Assembly: GCA_963779415.1 (NCBI GenBank) | Contig: CAVZYA010000001.1 | Coordinates: 544,001-608,000 of the forward strand | Source of the DNA: an uncultured Acidobacteriota bacterium | GTDB taxonomy: Bacteria > Acidobacteriota > Thermoanaerobaculia > UBA5066 | Reading direction: 5' to 3' | DNA length: 64,000 bases | In this document: one piece after another, positions 46,491-54,337 of the stretch | Layout of the letters: every line of letters starts with the position of its first letter | Numbering within the stretch: the stretch's first letter is position 1 | Notes under the pieces: generated by a model | The model's input: only the letters and a program-made list of their open reading frames with translations | Databases searched by the model: none | What the model was told of the DNA's origin: nothing | Position numbers and translations under genes: made by a program

Positions 46491-48541
46491 CGCCCTTCCC
46501 CGAGGCCCCGCTTCGTCAGCCCGTAGACCGCGAACGTCCCGAGCCAGTGCCCTCCCTCGTAGTGCTCTCCCGTGATGGCCGCGAGGCCGGCGGCGCGGTG
46601 CGCGAGCGCGGCGTTCCGAAGGGACGGAATCCGCGGGTCGCCCGCCGGAAGACCGGACGCGATCCCCTCGAGCATGAAGGAGCGGCTGAGGTTGAGGCCG
46701 TCGAGGTGGGCCAGCTTTCCGTCACCCGCGTCCGTCGTCACGCCGGGCCGGATCCAGTCGCCCGTGGCGTCCGAAGGCACCTCGGGGAGGAAGGCTCCGA
46801 GCCACGAGGCGAAGGGCAAAGGCGGAAGGACGCGTCGGACGAGATCGGCCTCCGCGAGGCAGGGCGAAAGGAAATCCTGCCCCGACGGCTCGTACCCGAG
46901 GGGGCAGCCCCTGTCGCCGCCATACAGCTCGAGAATCCGGCGCTCGAGGAGCGACGCCTTCCCGGTCTCCCCCGCGCCGCGCGCCCAGTCGAGGACGAGG
47001 CCGAAGGCGAAGGCCGTCTGCGCGTGTTCCCCCTCGCGAATAGGATAGGAGAGCTTCGGAATCCAGCCGAAGAGCTGTGCGGCGGCCGCCTGCTCCAGCG
47101 GGCGGAGCGCCGCCGACCAGGCCCGCGCCTCGGGATCGTTCCATTCGCGGAGCTCGGCGGCGAGCTGGAGAAGCCACGCGAGCCCGTACGGACGCTCGAA
47201 GGTGCCGCGTCCCGGACCCTCGAGGTAGGCGACCTCTCCGGCCACATTCGCCGGCGTCAGGCTCTTCGCGAGCGCCGCCCGCGCCCGCGCGGCGAGCGGA
47301 TCGCCCGGGGCGAGACGCGCCATCCGCGCGAGAAGCCAGTGGCCATGAACCGACGAATGCCAGTCGTAGCAGCCGTAGAAGGCCGGCGTCAGCTTCCGGG
47401 GCGGAAGGGCGTCCGCGTCGGAGTTCATCACGTGGGCGATCTTGTTCGGGTACTCGCGGTGAACGCAGTCGAGCGCGAGGCGGGCATAGCGGGCCACCGC
47501 CTCGAGCCCCCCCGGAACCGGGACGACCTCGCTGGTGCCGAGCCCGTCCGGCTCCTTGCCGGCCGGGAACCCCCCGACGACCTCCATCCGGGCGAGGTCG
47601 ACGACGGCCACGACGTCCGCGTTGGAGTTCGCGACGAAGACGGACGTGCCGGAGGGCGGGACGAGAATCCCGACGGGTGCCGGACTTGCCCCGAACATTC
47701 CGGAGAAGAGGCGGCCCGACGGGTCGACCGCCTTGGCGGACATCGGGATCCGGCCGGTCTCCTTTCGGGTGGCCCGGTCGAAGACGGCGACGTCCCCGCT
47801 GCGGGCCCGCGAGACGAGGACGCCCCGCCCGTCCCGCGTGAAGGCGACACGGATCGGAAACGAGGGACAGGCAAGCGTCGCGCGAACCTCGAGCGTCGCC
47901 GCGTCGACGACGCTGACCGTGTCGGACGCGCGGTTCGCCACCCAGACCTCCGTTCCGTCCGGCGAGACCGCGATTCCCTCCGCGCCGGCCCCCGTTGCCG
48001 TCGACCGGACGGTCCCCGTCGCGACGTCGATCGCGGTGACGCTCCCCGACCCGACGTTCGCGACGAAGATCCTCGCTCCGTCGGGCGAGACGGCGAGCAT
48101 GTGCGACGTCTCGGCCCCGGTCGCCCAGGTCCGGAGGACCCTTCCCGACGGAACGTCGACGAGGGCGACGGCCTGGTTCGCCTCTGCGGTCACGGCCACC
48201 GTCCTGCCGTCCGGAAGGAAGGCGAGGCCGTGCGGGCGGCGCAGCTCTCCGAGGTCGATCGTCCGGACGGCCCGCGCCCCGGCCACGTCGAGGACCGTCA
48301 GCGTCCGCCCGTCCTTTCCCCGGACGCCGTAGTTCGAGACGACCGCCGTCCGGCCGTCGGGCGAAACGGCCACCTCGTGCGGCCCGAGCCCGACGGGGAC
48401 CGTCGCGGAGACGGCGCCCGTCCTCTCGTCGAGAAGAGAGACGTTCGCCTCCGACTTGTTCAGGACGAGGAGCGTCCCGTCGGCACGGAGGGCGCGCGGC
48501 AGGAGAAGCACCAATGCGAGCGCGGCAGCACCGAGTCTCAT
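46487..48541 (-). CDS. Secreted YVTN-type beta-propeller fused to DUF2891-like domain
   Basis: Signal peptide; repeats PH..AVSPDG...V.N; C-terminal half EYPNK, FYGCYDWHSSVHGHW, FERPYG, HLDGLNLSR, HWLGTFA. Confidence 0.8.
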   Translation of the reverse strand: MRLGAAALALVLLLPRALRADGTLLVLNKSEANVSLLDERTGAVSATVPVGLGPHEVAVSPDGRTAVVSNYGVRGKDGRTLTVLDVAGARAVRTIDLGELRRPHGLAFLPDGRTVAVTAEANQAVALVDVPSGRVLRTWATGAETSHMLAVSPDGARIFVANVGSGSVTAIDVATGTVRSTATGAGAEGIAVSPDGTEVWVANRASDTVSVVDAATLEVRATLACPSFPIRVAFTRDGRGVLVSRARSGDVAVFDRATRKETGRIPMSAKAVDPSGRLFSGMFGASPAPVGILVPPSGTSVFVANSNADVVAVVDLARMEVVGGFPAGKEPDGLGTSEVVPVPGGLEAVARYARLALDCVHREYPNKIAHVMNSDADALPPRKLTPAFYGCYDWHSSVHGHWLLARMARLAPGDPLAARARAALAKSLTPANVAGEVAYLEGPGRGTFERPYGLAWLLQLAAELREWNDPEARAWSAALRPLEQAAAAQLFGWIPKLSYPIREGEHAQTAFAFGLVLDWARGAGETGKASLLERRILELYGGDRGCPLGYEPSGQDFLSPCLAEADLVRRVLPPLPFASWLGAFLPEVPSDATGDWIRPGVTTDAGDGKLAHLDGLNLSRSFMLEGIASGLPAGDPRIPSLRNAALAHRAAGLAAITGEHYEGGHWLGTFAVYGLTKRGLGEGR

Positions 48542-48569
48542 TCCGACATGCTACCGCGCGGCGAAGGCG

Positions 48570-48887
48570 TCAGCCGGAGCGCGGGCCGAGCGGCAGAAGC
48601 GACAGCTGCGAAACGCTCTTCTCCAGCCGCGCGATCTTCTTCCTCGGTTCCGACTTCGAGAGCGACCAGGCCCCCTGCAGATGGAGCCAGTACTCCGGGT
48701 CGGTGCCGAACGCCTGTGCGAAGAGCCACGCGGTCCGCGGCGTCACGCTGCGCCTCCCGTGGACGATCTCGAGGATCGTCTTCTCCGAGAGGTGGACGTG
48801 CCGGGCGAGGGTCGCGTGCGTGACGCCGAGAGGCCCGAGGAACTTCTCCTCGAGAACCTGCCCCGGATGCGGGGGTTTCGACTCCAT
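48570..48887 (-). CDS. higA: HigA-type XRE antitoxin (orphan)
   Basis: PPHPG.VL.E.FL.PLG, EIVHGRR..T, FGT.PEYWL.LQ. Confidence 0.8.
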   Translation of the reverse strand: MESKPPHPGQVLEEKFLGPLGVTHATLARHVHLSEKTILEIVHGRRSVTPRTAWLFAQAFGTDPEYWLHLQGAWSLSKSEPRKKIARLEKSVSQLSLLPLGPRSG

Positions 48888-48942
48888 GCCGATGACCTCT
48901 CGCGCGATCCTACCGCGTGCCGGACCGGCCGAGGCCCCTAGA

Positions 48943-49689
48943 ATGCGCTCCGTGCCGAACAAGTACCTCTCCGAAGGCGAGGAGCGCGCCCCGAAGGTCC
49001 GGGAGATGTTCTCGCTCCTCGCGGGGCGCTACGACCTGATCAACGACCTGATGTCCGCGGGCCTCCACCGGAAATGGAAGCGGGAAACCGTGACGCTTGC
49101 GCTCGAAGGGAAGAAGGGGCGCCTCCGGCTCCTCGACCTCTGCTGCGGGACGGGCGACCTCGCCTTCCTCGCCGAGAAGGCCGCGCCCGAGGCGGCGGTG
49201 ACCGGCGCCGATTTCACCCTTCCGATGCTCCGGATCGCCCGAAAGAGACGATCGGCCGCGAGCGGTCGCAGCCGCTTCACCCAGGCCGACGCCCTCCGGC
49301 TCCCCTTCCGGAGCGGAGCCTTCGACGCCATCACCATCGGCTACGGCCTCCGGAACGTGGCCGACCTTCCGAAGGCGCTCTCGGAGATGCGCCGCGTCCT
49401 CGCGCCGGGCGGCCGGCTCGTCGTCCTCGACTTCGGCAAGCCGGCGAATCCCGTCGCGGCGTGGCTCTACAACGCCTTTCTCCATACGGTCATGCCGGTC
49501 ATGGGGACCCTCTTCCACGGGGACCCCGAGACCTATCTCTACATTCCCGAGTCTCTCCGGAAGTTCCCGGCGCAGAAGGGGGTCGAGGAGCTGATGAGAG
49601 AGGCCGGTTTCGTCCGCGCTCGCTACCAGAACCGCCTTCTCGGGACGATGGGCCTCAACGTCGGCGAAGCGCCCGGCGGGGCGACATGA
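48943..49689 (+). CDS. menG: UbiE/MenG quinone C-methyltransferase
   Basis: YD..ND.MS.GLH..W, LDLCCGTGD, IGYGLRNV, Y.YIPES. Start ATG 48943 or GTG 48952. Confidence 0.9.
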   Translation: MRSVPNKYLSEGEERAPKVREMFSLLAGRYDLINDLMSAGLHRKWKRETVTLALEGKKGRLRLLDLCCGTGDLAFLAEKAAPEAAVTGADFTLPMLRIARKRRSAASGRSRFTQADALRLPFRSGAFDAITIGYGLRNVADLPKALSEMRRVLAPGGRLVVLDFGKPANPVAAWLYNAFLHTVMPVMGTLFHGDPETYLYIPESLRKFPAQKGVEELMREAGFVRARYQNRLLGTMGLNVGEAPGGAT

Positions 49690-49768
49690 GGACGACTGGT
49701 CACTTTGAACCAAGGAGGCCCCCGGCCACATGTGGGATAGTTTCCCCGGATCCGTTGGGAGGGCTCGC

Positions 49769-50785
49769 ATGACGACGATCGGCATCATGGGTTTCGGGCG
49801 AATCGGGCGGAACCTCTTCCGCCTCCTCTACAAGCGCGACGACGTCCGGATCGGCGCCGTCTGCGACATCGCGGATCCCGCCAGCGCGGAGTACCTTCTC
49901 CGTTTCGACACGCTCTCGGGCCGCTTCCCCGATCCGATCTCGGTGAAGGAAGGACAGCTCTGGGTCTACGGGCGGCCGATCCCCTTCCTCGCGGGGTGGG
50001 ACAAGGCGGCAATCCCCGACTGGCAGGCCCTCGGAGTCGACACGGTCATCGAGGCGACGAGCCGCCCCCAGAGCCGGGCCGACCTCGAGAAGCACCTCGC
50101 TGCGGGGGCCCGCCGCGTGATTCTCACGGCGCTCCCCACCGAGCCGCTCGACATGATGGTGGTCCCGGGCGTCAACGACGAGACTCTCTCCGCCGCTCAC
50201 CGGCTCGTCTGCAACGCGTCGCCGACCATCCAGGGCCTCGCTCCCCTCGTGAAGATCCTTCTCGACGCCTTCGGGATCGACCGGCTGATGTTCACGACGG
50301 TCCACGAATACACGAGCTATCACCGCCTCGCCGACGTGCCGGCCCAGGACATGCGCCGCGGTCGCTCGGCCCCCGAGAACATCGTGCCGCAGGAATCGCG
50401 CTCGCCGGCGATCCTGATGGACCTCTTCCCCGAGCTGAAGAACAAGGTCCTCGGCGCGGCGCTGAACGTTCCCGTCCCGAACGGGTCGGCTGTCGATCTC
50501 GTCTGCTGGCACCCGAAGAAGGTCACCGTCGACGCCGTCAACGAAGCGGTCCGGACGGCCGCCGGGAGCCGATGGAAAGGAATCCTCGACTGGACCGCGG
50601 ACCCGATCGTCTCCTCCGACGTCGCCCAGAGCCCCTATTCGGGGACCTTCGACTCGAAGGCGACGATGGTCCTCAGCGAGACGCTCTCGAAGACGCTCCT
50701 CTGGTTCGACTCCGGCTGGGCGTACGCCCACCGGCTCGCCGACCTCATCGACCGGTTCCACATCCTCGACAAGGAGGCACGCTGA
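49769..50785 (+). CDS. GAPDH paralogue lacking the catalytic cysteine (predicted pseudoenzyme)
   Basis: GFGRIGR, TTVH, VPVPNGS, PIVSSD, WFD; active-site motif reads CNASPTIQGLAP instead of SNASCTTNCLAP. Confidence 0.85.
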   Translation: MTTIGIMGFGRIGRNLFRLLYKRDDVRIGAVCDIADPASAEYLLRFDTLSGRFPDPISVKEGQLWVYGRPIPFLAGWDKAAIPDWQALGVDTVIEATSRPQSRADLEKHLAAGARRVILTALPTEPLDMMVVPGVNDETLSAAHRLVCNASPTIQGLAPLVKILLDAFGIDRLMFTTVHEYTSYHRLADVPAQDMRRGRSAPENIVPQESRSPAILMDLFPELKNKVLGAALNVPVPNGSAVDLVCWHPKKVTVDAVNEAVRTAAGSRWKGILDWTADPIVSSDVAQSPYSGTFDSKATMVLSETLSKTLLWFDSGWAYAHRLADLIDRFHILDKEAR

Positions 50786-51786
50786 TGTCCCGCGTCGCCA
50801 TCAACGGCTTCGGCCGCATCGGACGGAGCGTCTTCCGCATCCTCGCCGGCCGACCGGATGTCGAAGTCGTCGCCATCAACGACCTCTTCGACGACGACCA
50901 GCTCGCCTATCTCCTCAAGTACGACACGATCATGGGGGTCTTCGAGAAGGACGTCGCCGTCGCCGGAAACCAGATGGTCGTCGACGGCCGGAAGGTCCTG
51001 ATGACGAAGGAGAAGGACCCGTCGAAGCTCCCGTGGGCGAAGCTCGGCGTCGACGTCGTGGTGGAGTCGACCGGGAGGTTCCTGACGCGGGAGGCGCTCG
51101 AAAAGCACCTCGCGGCCGGCGCCCGGAGGGTCATTCTGACGGTTCCGGCCAAGGACGAGATCGACGCCATGATCGTCATGGGGGTGAACGACGCCTCGCT
51201 CAAGAAGGAGCACCGCATCGTCTCGAACGCCTCCTGTACGACGAACTGCCTCGCGCCGATCGCGAAGATCCTCGACGAGTCGTTCGGCATCGAGAACGGC
51301 TTCATGACGACCGTACACGCCTACACGAACGACCAGCGCCTCGCCGACGTTCCGCACAAGGACCTCCGCCGCGCGCGAGCCGCCGCCGAGAACATCATCC
51401 CGACGACGACGGGCGCGGCCCGCGCGGTCGGCAAGGTCCTCCCGCATCTGAAGGGGAAGCTGGACGGGATGGCGATGCGGGTCCCGGTACCGGACGGCTC
51501 CGTCGTCGACCTCGACGTCAAGCTCCGGAAGAGCCCGTCCGCCAGGGAGATCAACGAAGCCGTCCGCGCCGCGGCGGCGGGGCCGATGAAGCGGATCGTC
51601 GAGTACAGCGAAGTCCCTCTCGTCTCGAGCGACATCATCGGGAACCCGCACTCCTCCGTCTTCGACGCCCTCTCGACGAAGAGCCTCGGCGACGGCTACG
51701 CGAAGGTCCTCTCCTGGTACGACAACGAGTGGGGGTACTCCAACCGCGTCGTGGATCTCGTCGACCGGCTGGTGGCGCTCGGCTGA
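50785..51786 (+). CDS. gap: Type I glyceraldehyde-3-phosphate dehydrogenase
   Basis: INGFGRIGR, SNASCTTNCLAP, TTVHAYT, TTGAA, WYDNEWGYS. Confidence 0.95.
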   Translation: MSRVAINGFGRIGRSVFRILAGRPDVEVVAINDLFDDDQLAYLLKYDTIMGVFEKDVAVAGNQMVVDGRKVLMTKEKDPSKLPWAKLGVDVVVESTGRFLTREALEKHLAAGARRVILTVPAKDEIDAMIVMGVNDASLKKEHRIVSNASCTTNCLAPIAKILDESFGIENGFMTTVHAYTNDQRLADVPHKDLRRARAAAENIIPTTTGAARAVGKVLPHLKGKLDGMAMRVPVPDGSVVDLDVKLRKSPSAREINEAVRAAAAGPMKRIVEYSEVPLVSSDIIGNPHSSVFDALSTKSLGDGYAKVLSWYDNEWGYSNRVVDLVDRLVALG

Positions 51787-51970
51787 CCGACACCGTGATC
51801 CTCATCCGCCCCGGGAGTCCTCGCCGCCTATAATTCAGACGTCACGTGAGGACGGGGGAGAGACCGCGGCCGACCGCACGGAGGAATCCCGCGCCCCTGA
51901 GGGCTCCGGGGCCGGAGTTCGCGTCCACGGAGTTCCCGAACAGCCCGCGCCGCGCTCCGTCAACCGCCTG

Positions 51971-54337
51971 GTGACGGTTCTCGTCGTCCTCTTCGCCCTC
52001 GCCACGACGGTCGCGATGATTCTCGGAATCCTGGGACTCGACACGCTGGCCACGTTTCGAGCGTACGCCGCTGCCGAGAGCCGGTGGTCCCGGGAAGAGG
52101 CGGCGAGCCTTCTCGCCCTCTACCGGTATCTCGACTCGGCGGACGAAAAGGACCATCAACTCTTCCTCGGCAGCCAGGAGATCCCGAAGGCGTTCCACCA
52201 CGCCCTCCGCGAGCTCGATGGGCCGGTGATCGAGCCCCGCCCGGCGGCGGAGGCGCTTCTCGCGGCCCGCAGCCACCCGGACGAGGTGGACGGGATGGTG
52301 TCGGTCTTCGCCCGGATGAGGAGCCTGGACGACGTCGCACGAGGCCTCGCCATCTGGCGCCAGTCGGACGCCCTCGGCGAGGAGATCGTGGCGCTCGGGG
52401 AGAGGATTCGGGGGGACTTCGCCTCCCACCGAATCGACGCGACCCGCCGTTCGGCATACCAGGCGGAGATCGAGCAGATCGGCGCCCGGCTGTCGGAGAC
52501 GTCCGAACGCTTCACCGCACAGGTCGGTTCGACGACGCGGCGGCTCCGGCGTCTCCTCGTCGCGACGCTCGTCGCCCTCACGCTCCTTGCGATGGCCTTT
52601 GCCGTCTCGGTCTCCGTGCACGTCGCCCGCCTCCTCCGGAAGCGGGAGCGCGACCTCGCGGTCTCGGAGCGCCGCTATCGGCTCCTCTTCGAGCGGAACC
52701 TCGCCGGCCTCTACCGAGCCACCCTCGACGGAAGGATCCTCGAGTGCAACTCGGCTTTCGCCCGGACCCTCGGCTACCCCAGCCGAGAGGAGATCCTCCA
52801 GCTCAACATGCACGAGCTCTACCTCGACCCGGACGACCGGGAGGTGACGATCGCCACCCTCCTGCAGCAGAAGTTCCTCGTGAACTACGAGATCGGCCTC
52901 CGCCGGCGGGACGGCTCACCCGTCTGGGTCCTCGTCAACGAAAGCCTTCTCGACGACGAGACCGGAGGACCGGTCCTCGAGGGAAGCCTCATCGACATCA
53001 CGGACCGGAAGAGGGCGGAGGAGGAGAGCCACCATCAGGCGTATCACGACGCCCTGACCGACCTCCCGAACCGGGCCCTCTTCCACGACCGGCTCTCCCT
53101 CGCGATCCTCCACGCCCACCGCCGGAAACAGAGCCTCGCGGTGATGTTCATCGACCTCGACCACTTCAAGAACGTCAACGACACGCTCGGGCATTCGGCG
53201 GGTGACGAGGTCCTCGTCGCCGTGGCCGACCGGCTGAAGGCCTGCCTTCGCGAGGAAGACACCGTCGCTCGGGTCGGCGGCGACGAGTTCCTCCTCCTCC
53301 TGACCGGGATCGCCCGGGAGAGCGACGTCGCCGGAATGTCCCGGAAGATTCTCAAGGTGCTGGCCGACCCCTTCGCTCTCAAGAAGCGGGAGCTCTTCCT
53401 CTCGGCCTCGATCGGCGTCGGCCTCTACCCGAACGACGGCACCGACGCGGAGACCCTCGTGGCGAACGTCGACACGGCGATGTACCGCGCCAAGGAGGCC
53501 GGCCGGAACAACTTCCAGTTCTTCACGCCCCACATGCAGGAGGCCTCCCAGGAGCGCGCCCACCTCGAGAGCGGCCTCAGGCGCGCTCTCCCGAGGCGCG
53601 AGTTCGCCCTTCATTACCAGCCGGTGATCGATCTCGCCTCGCGGCGCGTCCTCGGTCTCGAAGCCCTCGTCCGATGGAACCATCCGGAAAGGGGCCTGCT
53701 CGGCCCCAAGGAGTTCATCAGTCTCGCCGAGGATGCCGGGCTGATCGTGTCGATCGGGGACTGGATCCTCCACAAGGCCTGCGAGGAGGCCCGCCGGCTT
53801 CAGGCGGGCGCCTTCCCGGACCTCCGGATGTCCGTCAACCTCTCGCCCCGGCAGTTCCAGGACAAGGACCTCGTCTGGACGGTGCAGCGCGCTCTCACGG
53901 AGACCGGACTTCAACCGACCTCGCTCGAGCTCGAGATCACGGAGGGGATCGCCATGCAGAACCTCTCCCTCACGATGGAGGTGCTCGGCGAGCTCTCTCG
54001 CACGGGGATCCAGATCTCGGTCGACGATTTCGGGACGGGCCACTCCTCCCTCAGCTACCTCAAGCACTTTCCGATTCACCGCCTCAAGATCGACCGCTCC
54101 TTCGTGGCGGGAATGACGCGGGACGACCGGGACCGCTCGATCGTGGCCGCCATCGTCTCGATGGCCCACAACCTCTCGCTCCGGGTCACGGCCGAGGGCG
54201 TCGAGACGGCCGCGCAGGCCGAGCTTCTCGCCTCCCTCGGCTGCGACGACGTGCAGGGCTTCCTCTTCGCTCCGCCGCTCCCCGAGGCGAGCCTCGAGGA
54301 GCGCCTCCTCGCCGTCTGCGGGACGGAGCCGGGCTGA
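51971..54337 (+). CDS. Membrane PAS-GGDEF-EAL protein
   Basis: Two TM segments, PAS, DALT.LPNR, GGDEF, EAL, DDFGTG, AEGVE, QG. Confidence 0.92.
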   Translation: MTVLVVLFALATTVAMILGILGLDTLATFRAYAAAESRWSREEAASLLALYRYLDSADEKDHQLFLGSQEIPKAFHHALRELDGPVIEPRPAAEALLAARSHPDEVDGMVSVFARMRSLDDVARGLAIWRQSDALGEEIVALGERIRGDFASHRIDATRRSAYQAEIEQIGARLSETSERFTAQVGSTTRRLRRLLVATLVALTLLAMAFAVSVSVHVARLLRKRERDLAVSERRYRLLFERNLAGLYRATLDGRILECNSAFARTLGYPSREEILQLNMHELYLDPDDREVTIATLLQQKFLVNYEIGLRRRDGSPVWVLVNESLLDDETGGPVLEGSLIDITDRKRAEEESHHQAYHDALTDLPNRALFHDRLSLAILHAHRRKQSLAVMFIDLDHFKNVNDTLGHSAGDEVLVAVADRLKACLREEDTVARVGGDEFLLLLTGIARESDVAGMSRKILKVLADPFALKKRELFLSASIGVGLYPNDGTDAETLVANVDTAMYRAKEAGRNNFQFFTPHMQEASQERAHLESGLRRALPRREFALHYQPVIDLASRRVLGLEALVRWNHPERGLLGPKEFISLAEDAGLIVSIGDWILHKACEEARRLQAGAFPDLRMSVNLSPRQFQDKDLVWTVQRALTETGLQPTSLELEITEGIAMQNLSLTMEVLGELSRTGIQISVDDFGTGHSSLSYLKHFPIHRLKIDRSFVAGMTRDDRDRSIVAAIVSMAHNLSLRVTAEGVETAAQAELLASLGCDDVQGFLFAPPLPEASLEERLLAVCGTEPG

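Follow-up and report, generated by a model that had tools for sequence, protein, structure and literature searches.

[quoted passage not shown] Its phosphate site is built from Arg231 and Thr208/Gly209. In plants, GapA and GapB are both catalytic, and regulation comes from a CP12-like C-terminal extension of GapB. Two reports describe the chloroplast A2B2 enzyme (GapA/GapB), together with CP12, as a tetramer of two paralogous subunits, one of them regulatory (PMC11025378, 10.1101/2021.11.21.469434). Catalytically dead paralogues as partners of active enzymes are described elsewhere: trypanosomatid deoxyhypusine synthase is an NAD-dependent heterotetramer with a dead paralogue that activates it 3000-fold (PMC3663545), and AdoMetDC works as a heteromer whose second subunit, the prozyme, is a dead paralogue (PMC6221367). 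TbGAPDHL of Trypanosoma brucei is a conserved paralogue of GAPDH with Pro in place of the catalytic Cys152; its authors predict it to be inactive, with a cofactor pocket that may still bind a ligand, and the earlier-branching relative in Bodo saltans still has the Cys (PMC4106842).

Here we describe gapX, a GAPDH paralogue that overlaps a canonical gap gene in an uncultured member of the Acidobacteriota and is probably an undescribed non-catalytic partner of Gap, the cell's only normal GAPDH. With and without the Cys, the lineage of TbGAPDHL parallels the gapX proteins described below, some of which retain the Cys while others lack it. TbGAPDHL differs in being a eukaryotic component of the paraflagellar rod with no gene linkage to an active GAPDH, poorly conserved between species and read by its authors as a relic, whereas gapX is under clear constraint (PMC4106842). 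The proposed gapX/Gap pair resembles the chloroplast A2B2 enzyme in combining two paralogous GAPDH subunits in one tetramer. Compared with GapB, however, gapX has no extension (338 residues against 333 in gap, ending at the last helix) and lacks catalytic residues. Deoxyhypusine synthase and the AdoMetDC prozyme differ from gapX in fold and pathway and are eukaryotic; activation has been demonstrated biochemically there, whereas gapX is known from sequence. Searches of the literature outside subscription journals and supplementary files turned up no description of a bacterial GAPDH paralogue that lacks the Cys and adjoins gap.

The gapX-gap locus

gapX occupies positions 49769-50785 on the forward strand of the window (the whole 64,000-nucleotide stretch analysed here) and encodes a 338-residue protein beginning MTTIGIMGFGRIGR, in which the nucleophile Cys is absent. 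Its start was set at 49769 because homologues begin there, and a Shine-Dalgarno-like GGGAGGG, read from the sequence, lies 5 nt ahead of the start codon (49757-49763). The canonical type I gap (333 residues, 50785-51786, same strand), a member of what we call the partner gap lineage, overlaps it: the gapX TGA (50783-50785) and the gap ATG (50785-50787) have one base in common in the sequence TGATG (50783-50787), and an AAGGAGG Shine-Dalgarno for gap (50771-50777) sits within the gapX 3' end. Both this junction and the full-length, frameshift-free reading frame had been described in the original prediction and were found as described. The two genes, 45% identical across 330 residues, are the only Gp_dh_C genes in the genome. 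A scan of positions 48400-52100 returned no promoter-like and no terminator-like sequence (0.2 and 1.4, respectively, in shuffles), a result that is uninformative at high GC. For positions 49600-51900 no RNA run was listed, and the DNA runs listed matched small shares of the sampled words.

The NASCTTNC of gap reads NASPTIQG in gapX, with Pro152 (codon CCG, 50222-50224) at the position of the catalytic Cys149. The phosphate-site TTTGAA is replaced by QESRSP (50390-50407) and WYDNE by WFDSG (50702-50716), the latter corresponding to Asn313 to Ser and Glu314 to Gly (Gly316); aligned to canonical GAPDH, the protein is without the T208/G209 site and without Glu314. These three replacements had all been called correctly beforehand. 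A further change, missing from that earlier list, is the conversion of MAMRVPV in gap to AALNVPV, which puts Asn233 (codon AAC, 50465-50467) at the position of the phosphate-site Arg231.

What is kept is what gapX has in common with type I GAPDH (GapA, EC 1.2.1.12, TIGR01534; e.g. Bacillus stearothermophilus 1gd1): the two-domain fold (Pfam PF00044, Gp_dh_N, 1.9e-22; PF02800, Gp_dh_C, 7.2e-42), GFGRIGR, the catalytic His176 (His179 in gapX, within TTVHEYT) and the S-loop RLADVP..D.RR.R.A.ENI.P (residues 181-204, 50309-50380), which is conserved and has its LADVP signature in common with the partner gap. Asp33, the acidic residue after the first strand, is also retained. The closeness of the GFGRIGR, His and S-loop motifs to the neighbouring gene, as originally predicted, is evident in the alignment. 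Type I enzymes differ from gapX in possessing the nucleophile Cys, Arg231, T208/G209 and Glu314 and in scoring above the equivalog cut-off. With TIGR01534 gap reaches 445.6 bits, whereas gapX, at 267.2 bits, stays below the cut-off of 367.2; with TIGR01532 (Epd, erythrose-4-phosphate dehydrogenase) gapX, having no nucleophile Cys, obtains 242.9 bits against a cut-off of 530.55, and every NCBIfam GAPDH and E4PDH cut-off is higher than its score. Sequence matches of gapX in the PDB extend up to E = 5e-75, with 1nq5 and 1npt, engineered C149S and C149A mutants used as inactive forms, among the top ones, and Foldseek aligned the gapX model with 1gd1, 3zcx and others at a TM of 0.91. Judging from its residues, the gapX of this window would have lost GAPDH activity.

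The Pro codon had been held not to be a single-base error. This is so relative to a Cys codon, from which several base changes are needed, but not relative to the Ser typical of relatives, from which one change suffices (TCG to CCG). A read error is nevertheless excluded because Pro also occupies the nucleophile position in 13 of the best 120 cluster representatives. The suggestion of a new activity using the upstream Cys (CNASP) did not survive: among 121 scanned proteins CNASPTIQG occurs in one, that of the window, relatives having SNAS or S/CASS, and we reject this Cys as a nucleophile because it is unique to the window sequence.

The gapX clade

The best 120 cluster representatives of gapX (59-100% identity, query counted) are all full length, and none has Arg at 231 or Glu at 314. 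In a midpoint-rooted FastTree phylogeny of 150 sequences (branch supports not inspected), gapX forms one clade apart from canonical GAPDH and lies outside all canonical GAPDHs. The S-loop signature shared with the partner gap suggests an origin of gapX from the partner-gap lineage, a point on which the midpoint-rooted tree differs. Among six locus pairs with dS < 0.5, Nei-Gojobori dN/dS was 0.04-0.26 for gapX and 0.15-0.25 for gap, with no relaxation of selection in these close pairs, in keeping with the original prediction. The window compared with other loci gave 0.36-0.48 at a dS of ~0.7; only pairs with dS < 0.5 were relied on because the window dS is compressed by codon bias. The gapX clade is old and under purifying selection.

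Variation at the active site is nevertheless considerable. The nucleophile column of 72 gapX proteins holds Ser in 28, Cys in 27, Val in 8, Phe in 4, Ala in 2 and Pro, Gly and Asn in one each, against Cys in 72/72 partner gaps, and the Cys has changed to another residue at least 8 times across the gapX tree. From this pattern of replacements, the nucleophile Cys is dispensable in the clade. 'Catalytically dead', an apt description of the Pro-bearing window copy, is too sweeping for the family, in which 27 of the 72 sampled members keep the Cys. His176 (68/72) and Ser148, Thr150, Arg194 and Arg197 (72/72 each) are conserved; with these substrate-site residues in place and the Cys present in 27/72, some gapX members could therefore still be enzymes. 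The positions replacing T208/G209 vary across the clade (N26, R20, G5, E5, W4, others), and the QESRSP motif, which brings in a new Arg, is found in 81 of the 121 scanned proteins. One subclade has also lost His176 and has an altered Rossmann motif. No alternative catalytic residue conserved across the gapX clade was found. Gly13 and Arg14 are invariant (72/72), the first strand is followed by an acidic residue throughout (Asp in 64 proteins, Glu in 8), and gapX probably binds NAD(H), as far as these motifs can tell.

Linkage and co-inheritance with one gap lineage

A canonical gap lies downstream of gapX on the same strand in all 20 loci from the class and in 79 of 80 loci selected by a degenerate DNA pattern for NVPVxNGSxVDL, a gapX-specific motif inside gapX (the 80th locus ends at the contig end); the two samples share one genome or more (L020 = L050), and related loci do not count as independent. 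Both the gene order and the stop/start overlap come close to being invariant across lineages. The motif-selected loci carry labels of four phyla, and carriers of the pair include Thermoanaerobaculia, other Acidobacteriota and MAGs labelled Marinisomatota, Desulfobacterota and Gammaproteobacteria. Across 95 gapX/gap junctions the genes overlap in 84 (by 4 nt in 53 and by 1 nt in 31), are spaced by 0-3 nt in 9 and by more in 2, and a GGAG-like motif stands at the same place in most of them. In other lineages, 8 of 10 downstream ORFs that were tested belong to carbon metabolism (PFK in four cases, glycerate-kinase-like in two, class I aldolase and PGK in one each). The partner gap is the housekeeping GAPDH.

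A gap at least 64% identical to that of the window was present in 83 of 201 genomes of the class, two of them (G128 and G160) counted via partial matches. At least two GAPDH-like matches were found in 83/83 of these genomes versus 6/118 of the others. Five relatives without gapX, a same-genus genome included, carry one gap each, at 48-52% identity. The gap that follows gapX forms a separate lineage, and relatives without gapX use a different gap. Within its family the pair occurs in 6 of 19 genomes; being missing from close relatives, gapX is therefore dispensable provided that gap is also exchanged for another type. Between gapX and the partner gap, pairwise identities are correlated (r = 0.91), a value that none of 999 permutations reached.

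Interface, S-loop and complex prediction

Conservation, taken as 1 minus normalised column entropy with motif-biased positions left out, was 0.819 in gapX and 0.789 in gap at 33 predicted dimer-interface positions, and 0.668 and 0.786, respectively, at the remaining 270 (permutation p = 0.0001 for 72 pairs and 0.007 for 18 class pairs). The predicted interface of gapX is as conserved as that of gap while the rest of the protein drifts, a pattern equally expected of a homo-oligomer. No enrichment in the predicted interface was seen for residues that set the partner gap apart (1/17, Fisher p = 0.92), and a hetero-specific adaptation of the partner gap is not borne out by these positions.

In the gapX monomer model, pLDDT falls below 50 in the S-loop and nowhere else. 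Within it, Ala at P0002 position 187 is found in 72/72 gapX proteins, 67/72 partner gaps and 0/76 other canonical GAPDHs; the signature common to gapX and its partner may reflect common ancestry only. Prediction of the gapX-Gap complex scored 0.67, against 0.00 for the best of three controls, and passed the mark for a complex, to which 58 of 80 solved complexes but also 2 of 110 mismatched pairs come up; likeness to solved GAPDH homotetramers may explain the pass. Runs agreed in at least 98% of contacts, with a partner pLDDT of at least 91. The predicted interface resembles those of GAPDH dimers, and the prediction does not separate a heteromer from a gapX homotetramer.

Discussion

We lean, with some reserve, towards reading gapX as a catalytically degenerate subunit that probably binds NAD(H) and assembles with Gap, the binding being predicted. 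It would have kept the fold, the dinucleotide motif, the subunit interface and the S-loop and lost the residues that oxidise G3P. Made with the housekeeping Gap from one mRNA, with translation re-initiating where stop and start overlap, it would join Gap in a mixed oligomer, the simplest form of which is an X2G2 tetramer with the ordinary GAPDH architecture. There, as a non-catalytic subunit that probably binds NAD(H), it may shape how the catalytic subunits work or are regulated. We infer here the co-translation, physical association and NAD(H) binding of gapX and any regulatory effect it has. The original prediction of a non-catalytic subunit co-expressed and assembling with Gap is favoured by selection on the clade, linkage, co-inheritance, conservation of the interface and S-loop and the heterodimer prediction, with the binding itself still at the level of prediction and the NAD(H)/redox-sensor role suggested along with it a hypothesis.

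An NAD-dependent dehydrogenase or reductase that has acquired another substrate, forms its own homo-oligomer and is linked to gap for co-expression only would also be under purifying selection, and the intact GxGxxG with its following acidic residue, the near-constant His176, the invariant Ser148, Thr150, Arg194 and Arg197, the Cys kept by a minority, the new Arg of the subfamily-specific QESRSP and the glycolytic neighbour genes would all suit it. Such an enzyme would hardly be expected to accept eight different residues at its nucleophile position, Pro in the window copy among them, with repeated loss of the Cys under continued selection; the wide variation of the T208/G209 replacements, the subclade without His176 and with an altered Rossmann motif, and the lack of a clade-wide alternative catalytic residue point the same way, and strict co-inheritance with one gap lineage is unexpected for an independent enzyme. 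We consider a new enzyme unlikely. To much the same degree we doubt that gapX is non-catalytic yet forms no stable mixed tetramer, acting instead as a separate homo-oligomer, e.g. by buffering or sensing NAD(H) or a metabolite, by serving other glycolytic enzymes as a scaffold or by moonlighting as a binder of nucleic acids or proteins. Interface conservation and the complex prediction fit this equally well, as does the want of partner-specific residues at the interface, and the trypanosome protein with Cys152 replaced by Pro is a structural component of the flagellum and not a GAPDH subunit (PMC4106842). Against it stand the near-universal stop/start overlap, the co-inheritance with one gap lineage and the S-loop signature common to the partner, which together argue for a direct relationship of gapX with that particular Gap.

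The loss of catalytic residues and the absence of the pair from a same-genus relative might also be read as a recent gap duplicate drifting to a pseudogene, or as an assembly artefact. This we regard as extremely improbable, given a full-length gene without frameshift and Pro152 recurring among the closest representatives; a recent duplicate or pseudogene is ruled out by the 45% identity to the neighbour, which is far from close, by the dN/dS values and by a separate clade with members in several phyla.

The reading of gapX as a partner subunit can be taken further, and we do so tentatively and with rather more doubt: the housekeeping GAPDH of these bacteria might be an obligate two-gene heterotetramer in which the catalytic Gap is joined by GapX, a degenerate subunit that would bind NAD(H) and whose S-loop would complete the cofactor pocket of its neighbour and so tune or activate it, the module moving between phyla as a unit and displacing the single-gene gap. 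If true, one of the best-studied enzymes would have a bacterial 'prozyme'. Source databases name gapX proteins 'glyceraldehyde 3-phosphate dehydrogenase', a label that makes the catalytic gene content of these genomes look larger than it is. A conserved partner subunit, if confirmed, would give a core glycolytic enzyme a new quaternary form and provide a rare bacterial case, spread over several phyla, of regulation by a pseudoenzyme paralogue.

A degenerate GAPDH gene coupled to gap

The gapX gene (49769-50785, + strand, 338 aa), a degenerate GAPDH paralogue, and the canonical gap gene (50785-51786, + strand, 333 aa) are arranged tail-to-head; in TGATG at 50783-50787 the TGA stop of the first and the ATG start of the second have one base in common, and AAGGAGG stands 7 nt 5' of the gap ATG. 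Both proteins contain Gp_dh_N and Gp_dh_C domains and are 45% identical across 330 residues, Gap scoring 445.6 bits and GapX 267.2 bits, above and below the type I GAPDH equivalog cut-off of 367.2. The 4.36-Mb genome (92% complete) has no further Gp_dh_C match and, gapX being degenerate, gap is therefore the organism's sole conventional GAPDH. In GapX, Pro152 and Asn233 (own numbering) occupy the positions of the nucleophile Cys149 and of Arg231 (standard numbering), QESRSP replaces TTTGAA and WFDSG replaces WYDNE; GFGRIGR, Asp33, His179 (own numbering) and an S-loop closely resembling that of Gap are retained. The original prediction had named the Cys-to-Pro and the two motif changes together with the TGATG and AAGGAGG signals, all present in the sequence, and the kept GFGRIGR, His motif and S-loop, which alignment with Gap confirmed.

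A conserved family linked to gap

The best 120 cluster representatives of GapX, query included, are 59-100% identical and all full length, and their named members carry the label Thermoanaerobaculia GAPDH. Arg231 and Glu314 are absent from all 120, and the nucleophile column, from an alignment of proteins of 300-380 aa only, holds 97 Ser, 13 Pro, 7 Cys, 2 Asn and 1 Ala. When the 50%-identity representatives were searched exhaustively, 14 further, more divergent members showing the same losses were recovered; names in the cluster look-up for ten of them include Acidobacteriota, Planctomycetota and one partial Actinomycetota record. In a FastTree phylogeny of 150 sequences (midpoint root, topology alone), these GapX members form one clade separate from canonical GAPDHs, and no NCBIfam 20.0 model claims GapX. 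Across six locus pairs with dS < 0.5, dN/dS ranges from 0.04 to 0.26 in gapX and from 0.15 to 0.25 in gap, so gapX is constrained on the measure that the original prediction had proposed; at longer distances its dN is about 1.5-2 times that of gap. Judged by these comparisons, gapX is a conserved family, not a decaying wreck.

In the class sample of 201 genomes, wherever a genome has at least two GAPDH-like matches, those listed adjoin one another, and all 20 class loci read (window counted) have the degenerate copy upstream of canonical gap on the same strand. DNA encoding NVPVxNGSxVDL, a motif absent from canonical GAPDHs, was also scanned for in one genome per species: at least 119 stretches matched, and 80 were made into loci, at least one of which is shared with the class sample (L050 = L020). 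Canonical gap lies directly 3' of gapX in 79 of the 80, the last one ending at a contig end, so the tandem pair recurs in both samples. Full-length downstream gaps of the motif-selected loci are 63-81% identical to the window's gap. By depositors' labels, which can be wrong for MAGs, the 80 loci comprise Thermoanaerobaculia (29), unspecified Acidobacteriota (16), Desulfobacterales or deltaproteobacteria (10), Marinimicrobia/Neomarinimicrobiota (8), 'uncultured bacterium' (6), Multivoradales (4), Holophagae, 'TMED' bacteria and Gammaproteobacteria (2 each) and Polarisedimenticolaceae (1).

At 95 readable gapX/gap junctions (four fragmented-gene loci and one cut locus set aside, the start nearest to the stop being taken among alternatives), the genes overlap by 4 nt in 53 cases and by 1 nt in 31, are separated by 0-3 nt in 9, and lie 85 and 157 nt apart in the last two; a GGAG-like motif is found within the gapX 3' end at most of them. 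The gap or gapX frames of L033, L055 and L079 (and L053) are split in MAG contigs, by assembly indels or real frameshifts.

Active-site losses

We compared 72 non-identical gapX/gap pairs, the window's and 71 drawn from the 73 of 99 loci having exactly two genes of 325-365 aa, each GapX against the Gap of the same genome. Cys149, His176, Thr179, Arg195, Gly209, Arg231, Asn313 and Glu314 are each present in 72/72 partner Gaps. In GapX, position 231 is N68, S2, A1, D1 (to some extent imposed by the search motif), position 314 G64, S5 and three others, and position 209 N26, R20, G5, E5, W4 and others. Arg195 (R58, S10, T2, K1, L1), His176 (H68, R4) and acidic residue 33 (D64, E8) are better kept, and Ser148, Thr150, Arg194, Arg197, Gly13 and Arg14 are conserved in all 72. 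The Cys149 position reads S28, C27, V8, F4, A2, P1, G1, N1. The family is thus not uniformly Cys-less: the description of a catalytically dead, Cys-less copy holds for the window's GapX, with its Pro152, and does not extend to the family at large, 27 of 72 members of which retain Cys. The Cys of CNASP, put forward originally as an alternative nucleophile, finds no support, as the motif is not conserved (1 of 121 proteins scanned, the window's own).

The gapX tree rooted with partner gaps has Cys along its backbone and at least eight replacements. Thr179 and Arg195 are gone as well from the Val- and Phe-type lineages, the latter of which also lack His176 and some of the Rossmann motif. In the Multivorans-type subclade (L015, L016, L068, L072), with Phe at the nucleophile, Arg for His176, Gly for Thr179 and GFGLLGR for GFGRIGR, gapX takes the most degenerate form seen, yet its 4-nt overlap with gap is intact. 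As read from this tree and these columns, the order of loss is Arg231, Glu314 and the T208/G209 site first, Cys being repeatedly dispensable later while selection continued.

Predicted contacts with Gap

The GapX monomer model (mean pLDDT 89.4) is confident except in the S-loop (pLDDT below 50 at residues 182-191 and 198-204) and superposes on solved GAPDHs (TM 0.91). The Gap + GapX complex prediction scored 0.67 (best of three controls 0.00), clearing a mark attained by 58 of 80 complexes of solved structure and by 2 of 110 mismatched pairs, with contact agreement between runs of at least 98% and partner pLDDT of at least 91; since GAPDH tetramers are already solved, this pass shows likeness rather than binding and does not separate hetero- from homo-oligomers. 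The sheet of the catalytic domain and the C-terminal portion of the S-loop make up the predicted interface. Conservation (1 minus normalised column entropy) at 33 positions of the predicted interface list, 12 search-motif-biased positions having been removed, is 0.819 in GapX and 0.789 in Gap, against 0.668 and 0.786 at the 270 remaining positions (permutation p 0.0001, 72 pairs). With the 18 class-sample pairs only, interface conservation is 0.834 and 0.839 (p 0.007).

In GAPDH, the S-loop contacts the adjacent subunit along with that subunit's cofactor. Its N-terminal half carries a signature common to GapX and partner Gap and not to other GAPDHs: Ala at P0002 position 187 (GapX 72/72, partners 67/72, other canonical representatives 0/76, solitary class Gaps 0/5) and Val two residues later (62/72 and 67/72). 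This signature could be simple inheritance from a common ancestor. The title of PDB entry 1dbv (Leu187/Pro188/Asp32 mutant) would fit an importance of the S-loop region for the cofactor.

Distribution and transfer of the pair

Identities to the window's gap are bimodal across the 201 class genomes: 64-81% in 83 (G128 and G160 on partial matches only), at most 56% in 113, and no match at E 1e-60 or better in 5. Two or more GAPDH-like matches occur in 83/83 genomes with partner-type gap (two or three each) versus 6/118 others; all these tallies include five genomes flagged unpublished (G004, G104, G135, G175, G179), counted from matches alone. A third such match is present in addition to the pair in G010, G015, G020, G041, G045 and others (families f10, f12, f15-f17, f19, f20). 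The pair is present in 6 of the 19 genomes from the window's family; G052 (same genus, 99% complete; L027) and four other relatives (L023-L026) have instead one solitary gap each, 48-52% identical to the window's. Hence gapX and its gap are present or absent jointly, and relatives lacking the pair rely on another gap. Retention among relatives, a point on which the original prediction could have failed, is mixed: partner-type gap with a second GAPDH-like match occurs in 83 of 201 class genomes, and the pair in 6 of 19 in the family, G052 not among them. From gene content, the module is replaced as a whole by a different gap within one genus.

Pairwise identities of GapX and partner Gap are correlated over 72 pairs (r = 0.91, reached by 0/999 permutations). 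Pairs occur in MAGs labelled Desulfobacterales/deltaproteobacteria (L030, L038, L047, L051, L054, L074, L080, L085, L089, L104) and Gammaproteobacteria (L064, L081). The seven deltaproteobacterial gapX on the tree (L030, L038, L051, L074, L080, L085, L089) all encode Cys, and these Desulfobacterales copies are nested within the acidobacterial clade, a placement that points to movement of the pair from phylum to phylum as one unit, by horizontal transfer, unless the contigs are mis-binned.

Discussion

We slightly favour the view that GapX, catalytically degenerate and probably able to bind NAD(H), is a GAPDH subunit that would be produced with Gap and assemble with it. A decaying duplicate is very improbable given the constraint on gapX. 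The conserved His and the Cys-retaining members speak for a neofunctionalised enzyme; repeated Cys loss under selection is what one would expect were the protein's conserved function something other than catalysis by that Cys, and we consider this reading rather unlikely. It is similarly doubtful that GapX is a non-catalytic protein forming no mixed tetramer. Partner-Gap-specific residues are not enriched in the predicted interface (1 of 17, p = 0.92), which argues against hetero-specific adaptation.

Canonical GAPDH is among the nearest described relatives of GapX. Plant A2B2 GAPDH is a near system to the proposed GapX/Gap assembly and differs in that both plant subunits are catalytic. The trypanosome flagellar GAPDH-like protein, predicted by its authors to be inactive (PMC4106842), has the same Cys-to-Pro change as the window's GapX. 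The proposed role may be likened to dead-paralogue activators such as trypanosomatid deoxyhypusine synthase (PMC3663545). Full-text searches outside subscription journals and supplementary files turned up no paper describing a degenerate GAPDH paralogue in bacteria that is coupled to gap.

The window's upstream ubiE/COQ5-type methyltransferase gene (48937-49689, + strand) and downstream PAS-GGDEF-EAL gene (51971-54337, + strand, 788 aa) were seen in none of the other loci examined. Ten ORFs downstream of pairs in eight loci of other lineages encode, by Pfam, PFK (4, one per locus), class I fructose-bisphosphate aldolase (1) and PGK (1) (L036:2117-4350, L048:4576-5736, L058:4320-5480, L073:4888-6048, L030:1859-3088), a glycerate-kinase-like DUF4147/MOFRL protein (2) and proteins without a Pfam match (2). 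In some lineages, then, the pair stands at the head of a cluster of glycolytic genes, and these identities place the gapX-gap module in central carbon metabolism, where a GapX subunit may act on Gap through activation, altered cooperativity, or redox or metabolite sensing.
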